Shown: one piece after another, positions 52,009-54,851 of the stretch
How positions within the stretch are numbered: the stretch's first letter is position 1
Layout: every line of letters starts with the position of its first letter
DNA from: Escherichia phage vB_EcoP_CU10EC
Sequence record: PQ435408.1
Reading direction: 5' to 3' (one strand)
DNA length: 64,000 nt
Program-made: the position numbers and the translations under genes
Notes under the pieces: model-generated
The model's database searches: none
Told to the model about the DNA's origin: nothing
What the model saw: the letters and a program-made list of their open reading frames with translations, nothing else

Positions 52009-52269
52009 CTAACGCTTAGTCCAAAAAGTAATACGAATACTATTTTCATTACCAATGTAGTCGATACGTACATGCAAGCCATTACCATTAAACTCATTAC
52101 TTTTTTTCTGATAAGGCCAGACTAGGCTAGTCATAGGTATTTTAATGAAACCTGATATGTGTCCTAGTTTAGTACGGCTCTTTAATTCGTTCTGTAATGC
52201 ACAATAGATATCGTGTCGTGTAAGTGCTCTGGCTCTGACTTGAGCAGACCATAATTCTTCATAAGTCAT
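52009..52269 (-). CDS. Early small protein (hypothetical)
   Basis: 86-aa ORF. Confidence 0.3.
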   Translation of the reverse strand: MTYEELWSAQVRARALTRHDIYCALQNELKSRTKLGHISGFIKIPMTSLVWPYQKKSNEFNGNGLHVRIDYIGNENSIRITFWTKR

Positions 52270-52271
52270 TA

Positions 52272-52622
52272 TTAACTCCAGTAGTTGTAAGCATCGCCTA
52301 AGTGTTTACGCCATGCTTCTGGTAACAGTACATTTCCAGTTACGTTAATGAATTGGTATGGGTCCAGATAGTCATTACTCATAACTTTGAAATCCCATTG
52401 TGGATTAGAAGATGCATAGGCAATGAAACCTTCAATGAAGCCATAGATAGCACCCTCTTTAATCCGGTTACCATAACCATCCTTTACTGGAATGGCAAAG
52501 CTATTACCATAATGACCATAGGCCATACCCCAGCGAGCACCATGCTTCTTATATGCTAATTTGGCAGCAGCATTATTATGCTGCCCAAGTAAATTGGTAG
52601 TGAATACTAAGATTTCTTTCAT
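52272..52622 (-). CDS. Early small protein, possibly Rossmann-like nucleotide-binding
   Basis: Gly-rich FTTNLLGQH ... GNSFAIPVKDG pattern. Confidence 0.3.
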   Translation of the reverse strand: MKEILVFTTNLLGQHNNAAAKLAYKKHGARWGMAYGHYGNSFAIPVKDGYGNRIKEGAIYGFIEGFIAYASSNPQWDFKVMSNDYLDPYQFINVTGNVLLPEAWRKHLGDAYNYWS

Positions 52623-52819
52623 TTACAAGCCTCTCTATTATAAATATAAGCATCGTGTGTGGTCATATTGTTGTATTGACGGGTTACTTCTAAATAAGTA
52701 AGAGCATATTCATGGTCACGTTGTTCTTTCTTGGTTCGGCAATGACCACATTTACCATCCCATTGGGATACATAACCTTTGCCACATTTGCATTGCTTAT
52801 CCATTAGGATTCTCCACAA
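52619..52819 (-). CDS. Early Cys-rich zinc-ribbon-like protein
   Basis: CKCGK ... CGHC cysteine pairs. Confidence 0.3.
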   Translation of the reverse strand: MWRILMDKQCKCGKGYVSQWDGKCGHCRTKKEQRDHEYALTYLEVTRQYNNMTTHDAYIYNREACK

Positions 52820-53177
52820 AATATTTGTACATAGCTTTCACTAGCTTCTCTTTAATAACCTCACCATGACATGGCTTCGGATAACAGAAGCACTGTAAGA
52901 CCAATCCTTTCTCATCAATGGCTTTATTACCAAGACGATTAAGTTCATCCAGCACAACTGGATTACCTTTATCGATCTGCTCCTGTAGCCAGACCTTATA
53001 CTTAGCAATTACTTGCTCTCTGGTTCCATGTTTACCAATGACGAATGGATTACCTAATGGGGAGCCACGCCCAATATACTCTCCGGATTTACCATGATGT
53101 TTATTAACAATAATGATTGGACGTGCAGATACACCTAGCAAAGCATTGGTGTCATCACCTAATTGGATAGTCTTCAT
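52797..53177 (-). CDS. DUF4326-like early protein
   Basis: YIGRGSPLGNPF and CFCYPKPCHG resemble my recollection of the DUF4326 signature. Confidence 0.35.
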   Translation of the reverse strand: MKTIQLGDDTNALLGVSARPIIIVNKHHGKSGEYIGRGSPLGNPFVIGKHGTREQVIAKYKVWLQEQIDKGNPVVLDELNRLGNKAIDEKGLVLQCFCYPKPCHGEVIKEKLVKAMYKYFVENPNG

Positions 53178-53488
53178 GGTTTAAGTACCTGAAATGCGAA
53201 CACAGGACGTTTACTACGCCACTGGTTCATAGCTAATTCACTAGTTTCAGAACCATCATGTAAGTTATAAATAAATGAGATTACATAGTCTGGTTCTTCT
53301 GGGAAATTCTCTGTAGAGAATGGTAGACCTGCCTTCTTAAGGATAGGAACCAGAGGAGATTCAGCATTGCAGTAGAGGGTAAACTCTTCATTGAATGCCT
53401 GGCTTGTTTGAGATACATAATCAATATTACGCATCATTTTATCTACATCTGTAAATGTAGCGTCATGAACTACTAGAATAGTTTTCAT
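53174..53488 (-). CDS. Early small protein (hypothetical)
   Basis: 104-aa ORF. Confidence 0.3.
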   Translation of the reverse strand: MKTILVVHDATFTDVDKMMRNIDYVSQTSQAFNEEFTLYCNAESPLVPILKKAGLPFSTENFPEEPDYVISFIYNLHDGSETSELAMNQWRSKRPVFAFQVLKP

Positions 53489-53739
53489 ACCTTCCTCAAT
53501 GTTCCATAAATGCTATTATCGACAATACTCAAATCACAGAAACCAATCTCTTCTTGTCTCCCAGAGGATACCCAGATATTGTTTTCTGTTAGCTTAGGTT
53601 TCTTAGAGAATCCTATTAATGAGGTATTAGCACTCTTATATTGTCGTGGTAATAATGCTATATACTTAACCCAGTGAGGCACTTGGATAGTATGCCTCAT
53701 ATATTCTACGTTCTTGCCTGTAGGATATGTAATAATCAT
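53485..53739 (-). CDS. Early small protein (hypothetical)
   Basis: 84-aa ORF. Confidence 0.3.
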   Translation of the reverse strand: MIITYPTGKNVEYMRHTIQVPHWVKYIALLPRQYKSANTSLIGFSKKPKLTENNIWVSSGRQEEIGFCDLSIVDNSIYGTLRKV

Positions 53740-54096
53740 TTAGTACCTCACAACATATACAGGTTTATTTAGTCTCTGCATGATATCAATCATGTGCTTG
53801 GTTCCTTTAGATTTACCATCCCAGAAACATACAGCAGCATCTGCAAATTCACCCATTTCCTGGTTACGTCTATAACCAGCAGATTTTCCATATTTATCCC
53901 AGTTTGCTGGAAAATTATGAATAGGCATTTTGTTATTAGCCCATAGACTATATGCAAGCATATCTGCTCCACGAGCCATACCACATACCAATTCTGGGCA
54001 TTCTGGTATATTCCCTGAATTTACTAACTTCTGTAGTTCAGCAATCATAAGATTAGCGTCAGTAAAATCACGTCCACCGGCTACAATTAGTTTCAT
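53740..54096 (-). CDS. SLOG/DprA-like Rossmann-fold early protein
   Basis: MKLIVAGGRDF and GMARGADMLA resemble the DprA/SLOG GxARGxD signature. Confidence 0.35.
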   Translation of the reverse strand: MKLIVAGGRDFTDANLMIAELQKLVNSGNIPECPELVCGMARGADMLAYSLWANNKMPIHNFPANWDKYGKSAGYRRNQEMGEFADAAVCFWDGKSKGTKHMIDIMQRLNKPVYVVRY

Positions 54097-54314
54097 TTCT
54101 GATACCCCTGTATATAGTTAATACGACGAATACGTTGAGTAGATGCCTTAACAGCCATCTGTTGATTTTCTTCTTTATACTGATTAGTCAGTATCTTACC
54201 CCATTCCTTCTGGTTCCTTTGCTTCTGTAATATACGACTACACTTCTTATGATTAGCAACTCCTCTTCCTTTATTGCAAATCGGGCAAATACCATAATTA
54301 GTGCTGAACAACAT
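54093..54314 (-). CDS. Early small basic Cys-containing protein
   Basis: 73 aa with CPIC motif. Confidence 0.3.
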   Translation of the reverse strand: MLFSTNYGICPICNKGRGVANHKKCSRILQKQRNQKEWGKILTNQYKEENQQMAVKASTQRIRRINYIQGYQK

Positions 54315-54319
54315 TTTAC

Positions 54320-54550
54320 TTACTCCTTAGTAATGTGATTGGCAGTATAGAAGTCGTTAAGTTCTGACATACAAATATCAGCATACCCAGATTTACCGGA
54401 TTCTTTATTAACCCATTTGTCGAAGGCTTCATCGTAACCAGGCGTAGCAATCTTTACCCATATACTGGTTCCAAAGAATGTTTTCTTCTCTACTTCTGCA
54501 CCAATACCTCGTTTATTATCTGCAAAGCGAATTACTTTATATTTAGCCAT
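54320..54550 (-). CDS. Early small protein (hypothetical)
   Basis: 76-aa ORF. Confidence 0.3.
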   Translation of the reverse strand: MAKYKVIRFADNKRGIGAEVEKKTFFGTSIWVKIATPGYDEAFDKWVNKESGKSGYADICMSELNDFYTANHITKE

Positions 54551-54851
54551 TTAATGCCTCCAGTAGTATTTTACGAATAACATTAACATCAGATTCAGTA
54601 CCAATTAAACCAACAGGCTTACCTGTACTATCTGTTACAAAGCCAGCAATCCTTTCCATCTCTGCTGTAATTAACTTGTCACCACTAATAAGACGATTAC
54701 GAAGGTAAGCCTCATAAGCTACCTCTATATCTTCTACTGTGGTTCTTTCATTACGAGCAAATGGATTACTTAATGGGAAGGGTAAATGTACCCGTATATT
54801 CCTGTCAGCTACTTTAGCTTGGTGAGGAAGTATACATACTATTTCATTCAA
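54543..54851 (-). CDS. Early small protein (hypothetical)
   Basis: 102-aa ORF. Confidence 0.3.
   Translation of the reverse strand: MNEIVCILPHQAKVADRNIRVHLPFPLSNPFARNERTTVEDIEVAYEAYLRNRLISGDKLITAEMERIAGFVTDSTGKPVGLIGTESDVNVIRKILLEALNG

Follow-up and report, generated by a model that had tools for sequence, protein, structure and literature searches.

The window analysed here is a single stretch of 64,000 nucleotides from Escherichia phage vB_EcoP_CU10EC (PQ435408.1), a Gamaleyavirus (N4-like, Schitoviridae) coliphage that shows about 90% nucleotide identity to other Gamaleyavirus genomes. Between positions 52009 and 54851 its minus strand is tiled by ten open reading frames of at least 60 aa, and not by eleven genes as counted in a preliminary description. 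A P2-type hairpin lies on one side of this block and a P3-type hairpin on the other, both being homologues of the N4 vRNAP promoters, and the RNAPII genes follow directly downstream. The features, from the upstream to the downstream edge of the block, are:

54907..54920, minus strand: terminator-like hairpin, CCTCC-ATTA-GGAGG followed by a T-rich tail (consensus scan and direct reading)
54543..54851, minus strand: N4 gp9-like protein, a degenerate DUF4326 paralogue, 102 aa (phrog_464, E 1.8e-14)
54320..54550, minus strand: accessory gene, 76 aa (phrog_20151, E 1.5e-51)
54093..54314, minus strand: G7C gp9.1-like Cys-rich protein, 73 aa (C10-x2-C13-x8-H22-x2-C25, then a conserved basic stretch)
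53740..54096, minus strand: stand-alone YAcAr-family SLOG protein, 118 aa (Pfam PF10686; phrog_289, E 8.8e-33)
53485..53739, minus strand: G7C gp9.2-like protein, 84 aa (phrog_1972, E 3.6e-18)
53174..53488, minus strand: N4 gp11-like protein, 104 aa (81.6% identity to N4 gp11)
52797..53177, minus strand: canonical DUF4326 protein (N4 gp12), 126 aa (Pfam PF14216)
52619..52804, minus strand: N4 gp13-like Cys-rich protein, 61 aa (phrog_13804, aligned from residue 6)
52272..52622, minus strand: N4 gp14-type macro-fold protein, 116 aa (fold comparison)
52009..52269, minus strand: accessory gene, 86 aa (phrog_14487, E 1.4e-60)
51989..52003, minus strand: P3-type hairpin, AGCTGC-TCC-GCAGCT, with a GGA loop on the template strand (hairpin scan)

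A hairpin scan combined with comparison to N4 recovered homologues of all three N4 hairpins, situated 5' of gp1, gp2 and gp15. The hairpin at the downstream edge of the block is homologous to that directly 5' of gp15 in N4 (N4 P3), where positions 4546-4562, between gp14 and gp15, read AAGCTGC-TCC-GCAGCTT with similar flanks; hairpins of the same type are also seen in Mimir124, 24-32N and G7C. In N4, gp1, gp2, gp15 and gp16 are transcribed by the vRNAP (PMC13434306). The location of the block between hairpins matching those before N4 gp2 and gp15, together with its synteny with N4, upholds the early-region position proposed in the preliminary description, and marks the block as the putative accessory portion of an N4-like early region. 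The terminator-like hairpin lies about 55 nt 5' of the first gene of the block, and its presence just upstream means that membership in the early, vRNAP-transcribed class, of which rifampicin-resistant expression in the first minutes is a hallmark, is only putative.

The genes are packed as tightly, and overlap as often, as had been noted from the sequence: 4-bp overlaps occur at 52619/52622, 53174/53177, 53485/53488 and 54093/54096, an 8-bp overlap at 54543/54550, and the gp13-like gene overlaps 52797-53177 by 23 bp or 8 bp, depending on whether it starts at TTG 52819 or ATG 52804; gaps of 0, 2 and 5 nt separate the remaining neighbours. All ten ORFs are real genes rather than chance ORFs, since each matches a PHROG family (E 1e-14 to 1e-60), each is detected by tblastn in 13 to 1445 phage records, and each is under purifying selection, with pairwise dN/dS of 0.03-0.26 in comparisons of the window with N4, G7C, Mimir124, PE007 and 24-32N (values taken where dS was at least 0.2). 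The ten small genes are conserved, and the five ORFs named in the preliminary description are found on the minus strand at the coordinates given there and with their quoted motifs, namely GMARGADMLA in 53740-54096, and YIGRGSPLGNPF and CFCYPKPCHG in 52797-53177.

Five of the ten have counterparts in N4, which occur there in the same order, between the P2- and P3-type hairpins and upstream of RNAPII: gp12 (94% identity), gp11 (82%), gp9 (75%), gp13 (70%) and gp14 (46%). The remaining five, the SLOG gene among them, are accessory and variable, such that a conserved N4 core is interleaved with a variable YAcAr SLOG, a zinc-knuckle-like protein and three further ORFs. Homologues of G7C gp9, gp9.1, gp9.2, gp11, gp12 and gp14 also occur in the window, and the SLOG gene, 54320-54550 and 52009-52269 set the window apart from both N4 and G7C. 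The most sporadic member is 54320-54550, with homologues in only 13 phage records and none in N4, G7C, Mimir124 or 24-32N (dN/dS 0.10 against PE007); 52009-52269 is present in 58 phage records (dN/dS 0.06-0.10) and 53485-53739 in 68 (dN/dS 0.03-0.25). Profile searches recognized no domain in five of the ten block proteins, and none of the ten matched a PADLOC model at E up to 1. A literature search on N4 gp9-gp14 and the block proteins found no published function and no biochemical or genetic data. The gp11-like gene (98 phage records) always lies directly 5' of the DUF4326 gene, an adjacency retained in N4, G7C and Erwinia phage Frozen. A motif resemblance raised the idea that its product is a degenerate SLOG domain, which was ruled out by an hhalign probability of 0.2% and a BLASTP E of 0.88.

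The protein encoded at 53740-54096 had been termed SLOG/DprA-like. The first half of this label holds, given a match to PF10686 (YAcAr) over residues 1-69 with E 2.8e-11 and 43.5 bits, against a gathering cutoff of 28.2; the second half falls away, there being no match to PF02481 (DNA_processg_A) at E up to 1, and this is a SLOG protein of the YAcAr family, not a DprA. The SLOG superfamily is marked by a glycine-rich loop after strand 1 and a G-x-A-x-G-x-D helix motif, both of which are present here. The invariant motifs of the family comprise 6-AGGRDF-11, 38-CGMA-G-D-45, R77-N78 and 94-G-S-GT-H-101, with His101 likewise invariant (alignment A1), and A6-G7-G8-R9-D10-F11, C38-G39-M40-A41, G43 and D45 are unchanged across 24 SLOG relatives. 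LOG-type phosphoribohydrolases possess a PGGxGTxxE motif with a catalytic Glu; this motif is missing from the window's protein, in which the segment G94-K-S96-K-G98-T99-K-H101-M102 retains the G-T and has no Glu. Homologues number 7060 in the database and occur in 1185 phage records. At 60% identity or more the gene is found in 37 records, versus approximately 94-98 records with the gp9/gp11 core; it is absent from N4, G7C and about half of the Gamaleyaviruses, which indicates that any "module" to which it belongs is not obligatory.

The closest reported comparison is ORF83 of DruSM1, an unrelated siphovirus (Queuovirinae), which is similarly a stand-alone small phage protein and has a structure resembling LOG-family phosphoribohydrolases (preprint 10.1101/2025.06.06.658234). 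As compared by reported residue positions rather than by sequence alignment, its predicted AMP site, R89, N90 and T112, is matched by R77-N78 and T99 in the window's protein, and Asp114 of ORF83 stands where the latter has His101. It is most improbable that the window's SLOG protein is a DprA-like ssDNA binder and RecA loader aiding phage recombination or replication. DprA does belong to the SLOG superfamily (PMC7824862), relatives in GenBank are annotated as "DNA processing protein DprA" or "DprA-like DNA processing chain A", and three of the DUF4326 fusion partners described below match DNA_processg_A weakly (best E 7e-6). Yet it is YAcAr and not PF02481 that the window's protein matches, its 118 aa amount to a bare SLOG domain without the extra domains of DprA, and ORF83 is reported to lack the key DprA residues for dimerisation and RecA binding (preprint 10.1101/2025.06.06.658234).

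The assignment of 52797-53177 to DUF4326 in the preliminary description is well founded. The protein matches PF14216 with E 4.1e-22 and 79.1 bits (gathering score 25) and keeps all 14 of the 14 nearly invariant positions of the domain (G36, R37, L41, G42, N43, P44, R53, Y60, L94, C96, C98, P100, C103 and H104). Its Cys/His cluster sits in a strand-to-helix loop (E92-96, C96..H104, H105-122), which we take to be placed topologically where Cys-phosphatases have their CX5R loop, and DUF4326 is predicted to be an enzyme of the rhodanese-phosphatase superfamily. The domain is present in 1445 phage records.

A second DUF4326 paralogue of degenerate type, at 54543-54851, can be added to the earlier account. 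This gp9-like protein (74.5% identity to N4 gp9; 94 phage records) starts at a TTG with AGGAGA 8 nt upstream. It scores E 0.031 and 15.4 bits against Pfam DUF4326, below the cutoff of 25, and in its BLASTP alignment with 52797-53177 (26% identity, E 1e-8) the Cys/His segment is absent. Equivalents of G36, R37, R53, C96, C98, C103 and H104, that is, of the GR and C-x-C-x4-C-H residues, are wanting. The homology is nevertheless real, and the protein is a divergent DUF4326 paralogue rather than a canonical member.

When the PDB was searched with the SLOG, DUF4326 and macro-like proteins, both directly by sequence and by profile, chance-level matches alone resulted, and fold comparison was therefore used instead. 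By this means 52272-52622, formerly labelled Gly-rich and Rossmann-like, was reassigned to an N4 gp14-type protein with a macro fold of the TARG1/DarG type, although neither it nor N4 gp14 matches Pfam Macro (PF01661). The gp14 family displays two glycine-rich motifs, HGAGAA and TRIGCGLAG, which align with the GAG and GCGLD loops of TARG1. In the Gamaleyavirus version N16-N17-A18 replaces G-A-G, and the 8-9-residue TRIGCGLAG loop, present in more distant relatives and in N4 gp14 (as VTRVGCGLAG), is missing; the window's lineage has thus lost both motifs. K47 appears to align with K84 of TARG1, and the position of TARG1 D125 is apparently taken by Ala in the gp14 family. The glycine-rich loops of macro domains are those that contact ADP-ribose; with both motifs gone, ADPr binding by this protein is doubtful. 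The macro domains of TARG1 (C6orf130) and DarG, as glycohydrolases, remove ADP-ribose from protein or DNA; the loop-less version in the window probably does not act as a canonical ADPr hydrolase.

Both proteins previously described as Cys-rich do carry an invariant four-ligand Cys/His motif, and in each the ligands fall into two close pairs, a pattern consistent with a zinc ribbon or zinc knuckle. In the gp13-like protein (110 phage records) the cysteines form C-x-C-x11-C-x2-C (C10, C12, C24 and C27, counted from TTG 52819), and all four are invariant, N4 gp13 included. Its start is probably ATG 52804 rather than TTG 52819: the ATG is the start position in the N4 and Mimir124 homologues, and N4 gp13 is identical over the first 35 residues after it. 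In 54093-54314 (176 phage records) C10, C13, H22 and C25 do not vary between Gamaleyavirus and Erwinia phage Frozen; the end of its gene overlaps the beginning of the SLOG gene by 4 bp, and its homologue in Frozen adjoins a SLOG gene too. No match to this protein was found at the SLOG locus of EcoN5 (Kuravirus), and its matches in Kuravirus are located elsewhere in the genome than SLOG, so that the pairing is limited to Schitoviridae.

Evidence for a functional connection between these domains comes from gene fusions. Among the 150 best DUF4326 relatives, 28 long proteins were scanned for Pfam partners, yielding matches to YAcAr (7), NADAR (4), DNA_processg_A (3), cpYpsA (1), YpsA (1) and Macro (1), counted by Pfam family such that one protein may match several. 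One fusion (P0304) unites a SLOG part 55% identical to that of the window (E 1e-42) with DUF4326 (E 6e-34), seven more match the window's SLOG with the domains in either order, and another (P0318) combines DUF4326 with a region that shares 37% identity with the macro-like protein of the window (E 1.7e-9). The amoeba-infecting giant virus homologues of ORF83 are likewise reported to carry a C-terminal DUF4326 (preprint 10.1101/2025.06.06.658234). The occurrence elsewhere of SLOG-DUF4326 and macro-like-DUF4326 fusions argues for a shared pathway. Erwinia phage Frozen, a member of a different Schitoviridae subfamily, has the same gene set in its early region: SLOG beside the Cys-rich gene, the gp11-like gene beside DUF4326, and the macro-like gene.

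These fusions weigh against the view that the block is not one system but a mosaic of independent small genes for host takeover or superinfection in a common early transcription unit, some of which might be inhibitors of host enzymes, in the manner of N4 gp8, which inhibits host DNA replication. Such a mosaic would account for the differences in gene content among close relatives, for the sharp changes in nucleotide identity to a single relative from one gene to the next (100% to 75%), which point to recombination, and for the presence of five proteins without a recognizable domain and of two recognizable ones without the key residues of their family. Given that single polypeptides join homologues of three window proteins, that the combination recurs in a different Schitoviridae subfamily and that the gp11-like/DUF4326 and Cys-rich/SLOG adjacencies are conserved, we consider it rather unlikely.

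The fusion partners are also pertinent to a role in nucleotide-pool metabolism, wherein the SLOG protein, after the manner of the LOG-family nucleotide phosphoribohydrolases, would act on ordinary (deoxy)nucleotides and DUF4326 would dephosphorylate a sugar phosphate, channelling host nucleotides into phage DNA synthesis. In T4-like phages the DUF4326 homologue is NrdA.1, encoded beside ribonucleotide reductase genes (JS98 NrdA.1; "NrdA-like" annotations; phrog_24867), a context that nucleotide metabolism fits as well as counter-defence does. Further, the SLOG homologue of Kuravirus EcoN5 adjoins a nucleotide kinase and an exonuclease, and AMP is a hydrolysis substrate of LOG-family enzymes (cited in preprint 10.1101/2025.06.06.658234). 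Still, this explanation is unlikely: the recurrent partners NADAR and Macro are specialists in ADP-ribose and not in nucleotide synthesis, the block is located at a distance from the phage DNA-metabolism genes, in the pre-replicative early region, and the LOG signature PGGxGTxxE is missing (S96-K-G98-T99-K-H101, no Glu).

Four members of the block, namely the SLOG protein, the canonical DUF4326, the degenerate DUF4326 and the degenerate TARG1/DarG-type macro fold, have folds or domains tied to NAD/ADP-ribose-derived nucleotides. We infer that the most likely role of the block, with a probability of roughly 45%, is the early processing or binding of defence signals or modifications derived from NAD/ADP-ribose; a role against host defences is plausible. 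The domain associations seen here are already published predictions, Iyer, Aravind and colleagues having proposed that viral SLOG, Macro, NADAR and DUF4326 jointly process ADPr derivatives of host immunity (PMC9503650; PMC7824862). The only experiment on these families found in the literature is a preprint knockout of a SLOG-type gene in an unrelated phage: DruSM1 plated less well on AVAST type III once ORF83, annotated as DprA/Smf, had been deleted (preprint 10.1101/2024.04.14.589459).

Under the proposed role against NAD/ADP-ribose signals, the block proteins would be made within minutes of infection. The SLOG protein would bind an adenine-ribose-containing small molecule, candidates being an ADPr-derived immune signal or its breakdown product, and would probably cleave its N-glycosidic bond, whereupon DUF4326 might act on the ribose-phosphate part by means of its Cys/His loop. 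The macro-like and gp9-like paralogues may be binders, adaptors or decoys rather than hydrolases, as the conserved loop or Cys/His residues of their families are lost. The net effect would be a blunting of NAD/ADPr-based host defences. A more elaborate version, improbable in its entirety, is a multi-component counter-defence pathway against ADP-ribose immunity. In it, an immune nucleotide would be taken apart in two steps, or an ADP-ribose mark removed from phage DNA, by a SLOG N-glycosidase together with a DUF4326 Cys/His phosphoesterase, and two lineage-specific pseudoenzymes (the loop-less macro fold and the DUF4326 without a Cys/His site) would have taken on a new use as decoys or inhibitors, binding directly to defence proteins of the host. 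Acb1, Apyc1, Tad1 and Tad2 destroy or sequester immune nucleotides; the analogy with these small early proteins acting on nucleotide second messengers is one of mechanism only, and no kinship in sequence or fold is claimed. We also suspect that by its "N4-like ART" family PMC9503650 means NEURL4-type ARTs and not phage N4.

N4 is a classic model phage, and no assigned function was found in the literature for its early genes gp9-gp14. DUF4326 is present in about 3% of sequenced phage records (1445/50,697) and YAcAr SLOG in about 2% (1185). Reports place both in amoeba-infecting giant viruses as well, and the activities of both are still predictions. The locus offers canonical SLOG and canonical DUF4326 as separate, small and tractable genes, along with natural "dead" variants of the macro fold and DUF4326, in a phage group that is easily grown and engineered. 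The functions of its genes would test the long-standing prediction that viral SLOG, Macro, NADAR and DUF4326 cooperate against NAD/ADP-ribose-based immunity, and could explain differences in host range among therapeutic N4-like coliphages.

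In their left-end region, Gamaleyavirus genomes (G7C-like and N4-like E. coli podoviruses of the Schitoviridae) share about 90% DNA identity with the 2.8-kb interval 52009-54851, and the same 64-kb window contains a virion RNA polymerase (vRNAP) ORF of 3487 aa at 8762-19225. All ORFs and motif strings quoted in the preliminary description were recovered at their positions on the minus strand, with the correction that the interval is tiled by ten ORFs and not eleven. The tight packing reported for this block is evident in that most junctions abut or overlap by 4-8 bp, and the first ORF is preceded by an AGGAGA box 8 nt 5' of its TTG start. 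Every one of the ten matches a PHROG family, and their conservation in related phages is borne out by tblastn, which detects each ORF in 13-1445 phage records. Pairwise comparisons with the related phages N4, G7C, Mimir124, PE007 and 24-32N gave dN/dS values of 0.03-0.26 wherever dS was at least 0.2. The N4 counterparts of the block and the genes directly downstream are as follows:

54543-54851, minus strand, N4 gp9 homologue (74.5% identity)
53174-53488, minus strand, N4 gp11 homologue (81.6% identity)
52797-53177, minus strand, N4 gp12 homologue (94% identity)
52619-52819, minus strand, N4 gp13 homologue (69.7% identity)
52272-52622, minus strand, N4 gp14 homologue (45.5% identity)
51955..51137, minus strand, RNAPII subunit gene, directly downstream of the block
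50979..49762, minus strand, RNAPII subunit gene, directly downstream of the block

In an ORF-by-ORF comparison, N4 lacks the SLOG gene (53740-54096), 54093-54314 (G7C gp9.1), 53485-53739 (G7C gp9.2), 54320-54550 and 52009-52269, and G7C likewise lacks the SLOG gene. As read from identity bands, the latter occurs in about 37 Gamaleyavirus-type records, versus about 94-98 with the gp9/gp11 core. Identity to any single relative swings sharply from gene to gene, as in phage 24-32N, where 52009-52269 is 100% identical at the nucleotide level and 54093-54314 only 75%, a pattern characteristic of an accessory region undergoing recombination. Homing endonucleases are an additional source of variation in the RNAPII/early region: in Mimir124 and G7C an HNH homing endonuclease gene lies between the two RNAPII subunit genes, a space of only some 160 bp in the window (50979-51137), and G7C has a further HNH gene after gp2.

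The placement of the block in the early region was examined by a scan for hairpins with perfect stems and a 3-nt loop, TCC on the coding strand corresponding to GGA on the template strand. TCC-loop perfect hairpins with 5-7 bp stems are confined to 51989-57664 within the window:

57664..57652, minus strand, TCC-loop hairpin
57449..57437, minus strand, TCC-loop hairpin
56986..56970, minus strand, TCC-loop hairpin
56716..56700, minus strand, TCC-loop hairpin
52003..51989, minus strand, TCC-loop hairpin

The same scan of N4 recovered three such hairpins, at 90-102 before gp1, 557-573 before gp2 (matching the N4 P2 promoter hairpin) and 4546-4562 between gp14 and gp15, positions that fit the three vRNAP early promoters. 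The window hairpins 57449..57437, 56716..56700 and 52003..51989 are homologues of these, with similar stems and flanks; the block therefore sits between P2-type and P3-type hairpins, in the region read in N4 by the injected virion polymerase. Transcription of gp1, gp2, gp15 and gp16 by the N4 vRNAP has been reported (PMC13434306). The early-region position originally proposed thus stands by hairpin homology with N4, early expression timing itself being a prediction. Terminator-like sites are enriched in 51000-60400 (15 observed versus 5.1 +/- 2.0 in shuffles), and GC-rich hairpins with T-rich tails split the left-end region into segments:

59529..59504, minus strand, GC-rich hairpin with T-rich tail
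56202..56181, minus strand, GC-rich hairpin with T-rich tail
54920..54907, minus strand, GC-rich terminator-like hairpin with T-rich tail, just upstream of the block

Gamaleyaviruses may carry more vRNAP promoters than N4, since G7C shows six TCC-loop hairpins in its first 5.3 kb.

Several other features of the record were observed in the course of this analysis. The two copies of an exact 77-nt duplication that contains the P1-type hairpin (57391-57467 and 57606-57682) lie on either side of a 138-N run at 57468-57605, an arrangement that looks like the two genome ends, or the terminal repeat, having been joined across a gap. ORF 57070..57663 as listed spans the Ns and is artefactual; only its last ~106 residues represent the real gp1 homologue (the phrog_5020 alignment starts at residue 92). 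The listed 211-aa ORF 56211..56846 (minus strand) is over-extended, as its alignment to phrog_4099, an N4 gp2-type family whose protein G7C-based annotation calls 'RNAP1 subunit A', does not begin until residue 85; the P2-type hairpin falls within the upstream extension. A 63-aa early protein at 55876-56067 (minus strand) matches Pfam DUF7279 (E 4.1e-10), and the remaining small early genes that precede the block (54929-55874) belong to PHROG families of unknown function, among them a hydrophobic 50-aa peptide at 55313-55465. In the middle-gene region, the hairpin CTAGC-CGG-GCTAG occurs twice, at 39370-39382 and 39525-39537. The copies form a direct repeat with a spacing of 155 bp and identical flanks of 20 nt and 15 nt, located about the boundary between ORFs 37611..39398 and 39398..40330.

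The protein encoded by 53740-54096, previously described as SLOG/DprA-like, belongs to the SLOG superfamily, matching the YpsA-related Pfam family YAcAr above the curated cutoff (E 2.8e-11); the DprA part of that description did not hold, the DprA family being unmatched. The GenBank 'DprA' label is therefore valid at the superfamily level only. The protein is matched by 7060 database proteins, and a homologue is encoded in 1185 of 50,697 phage records, including other N4-like genera in which the gene also lies near the left end. The alignment of relatives shows invariant A6-G7-G8-R9-D10-F11, C38-G39-M40-A41, G43, D45, R77-N78, G94, S96, G98-T99 and H101, and the LOG-type Glu is missing.

The DUF4326 assignment of 52797-53177 is confirmed by PF14216 (E 4.1e-22) and by retention of 14/14 nearly invariant residues of the family. 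The protein is strongly constrained, its dN/dS relative to N4 gp12 being 0.04 at a dS of 0.94. Its AlphaFold2 model (pLDDT 92.4) places C96-x-C98-x-P-x2-C103-H104 in the loop joining strand 92-96 to helix 105-122. A second DUF4326 paralogue was uncovered at 54543-54851 (phrog_464, E 1.8e-14; 26% identical to the canonical protein, E 1e-8), which scores under the Pfam cutoff and from which the GR, R53 and Cys/His residues have been lost; the same pattern is seen for N4 gp9 (DUF4326 E 2.9e-4). In the database proteins P0318, P0304 and P0382, weak Pfam 'DUF488-N3a' matches that overlap the C-terminal portion of DUF4326 (E 1e-4 to 6e-3) are hints that DUF4326 and DUF488 may be related.

The protein encoded by 52272-52622, earlier viewed as Rossmann-like, is instead a macro-fold protein. 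It matches NCBIfam A1S_2505_Nterm (E 1.7e-23), neither it nor N4 gp14 matches a Pfam family, and its AlphaFold2 model, built from 55 sequences, is confident (pLDDT 93.4). The wider family has the consensus FGSN..G.HGAGAA...AIPTKD...VTRIGCGLAG, the second half of which (IPTKD to IGCGLAG) aligns with LITKK and PRIGCGLDR of TARG1 (hhalign probability 73%, E 3e-5); the likeness of HGAGAA to MGAGIA of TARG1 comes from a MAFFT alignment and inspection. In macro domains the two glycine-rich loops contact ADP-ribose. In 52272-52622 and all its close Gamaleyavirus relatives N-N-A replaces G-A-G and the 8-9-residue TRIGCGLAG segment is gone, the latter being retained in N4 gp14, Erwinia phages and more distant relatives. 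As both ADP-ribose-contacting loops are altered or missing, the version of this lineage is probably no longer a canonical ADP-ribose binder; the protein is nevertheless conserved (dN/dS 0.08-0.26). Some curated records name the N4 gp14 homologue 'macrodomain protein' or 'ADP-ribosylglycohydrolase'.

Both proteins noted as Cys-rich have invariant motifs, namely C-x-C-x11-C-x2-C in 52619-52804 (N4 gp13) and C-x2-C-x8-H-x2-C followed by a conserved basic segment in 54093-54314. The latter overlaps the SLOG start by 4 bp, and in Erwinia phage Frozen its homologue directly adjoins the SLOG gene in reversed order.

The DUF4326 protein was compared with 1.84 billion representative proteins, and the 28 longest of the best 150 matches were scanned, yielding Pfam matches (multiple per member allowed) to YAcAr (7), DNA_processg_A (3), cpYpsA (1), YpsA (1), NADAR (4) and Macro (1). 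By BLASTP, P0304 (226 aa) is a fusion whose first domain is 55% identical to the window SLOG protein (E 1e-42) and whose second matches the window DUF4326 protein (E 6e-34). Seven more DUF4326 fusions match the SLOG protein, with the domains in either order, and P0318 fuses DUF4326 to a domain 37% identical to the macro-like protein (E 1.7e-9). Frozen, a phage of another subfamily, has the same gene set in its early region. A rival explanation regards the block as a set of unrelated host-takeover genes; the fusions are the strongest argument that its members may share a pathway.

According to predictions by Aravind's group, the ADP-ribose derivatives that host immunity produces are processed by viral SLOG, Macro, NADAR and DUF4326 domains, with N-glycosidic bonds as the proposed target of SLOG and terminal ribose phosphates as that of DUF4326 (PMC9503650; PMC7824862). 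In the unrelated phage DruSM1, a knockout library showed reduced plating on AVAST type III when ORF83, which is annotated as Smf/DprA, was deleted (preprint 10.1101/2024.04.14.589459). Modelling in a subsequent preprint presents ORF83 as a LOG-like binder of AMP with giant-virus homologues bearing a C-terminal DUF4326 (10.1101/2025.06.06.658234). Our literature search found no experimental work on N4 gp9-gp14, DUF4326 or phage YAcAr proteins. The analysis establishes gene reality, family and fold identities, key-residue loss, fusions and synteny; the substrates, the catalysis, when the genes act and how the phage would profit are inferred. The most likely reading, at a probability of roughly 0.45, is that the block supplies early proteins which bind or dismantle NAD/ADP-ribose-derived molecules of host defences. 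Under this reading the SLOG and canonical DUF4326 proteins would be active as a pair, and their degenerate macro and gp9-like neighbours would bind without catalysis. A role in nucleotide-pool metabolism is a rival favored by the presence of DUF4326 as NrdA.1 of T4-like phages and by the adjacency of SLOG to a nucleotide kinase in Kuravirus. Another rival is a DNA-processing role of the DprA type.

The genes of the block have homologues in N4 and G7C that were sequenced long ago, the associations among the domains have already been predicted in print, and the kind of system is known though biochemically uncharacterised. To this, the present analysis makes modest additions: a further DUF4326 copy, which is degenerate; the disappearance, in this lineage, of the two glycine-rich motifs from the macro-fold protein; fusions linking the N4 gp14-type macro, besides SLOG, to DUF4326; and the location of the block between P2-type and P3-type hairpins.
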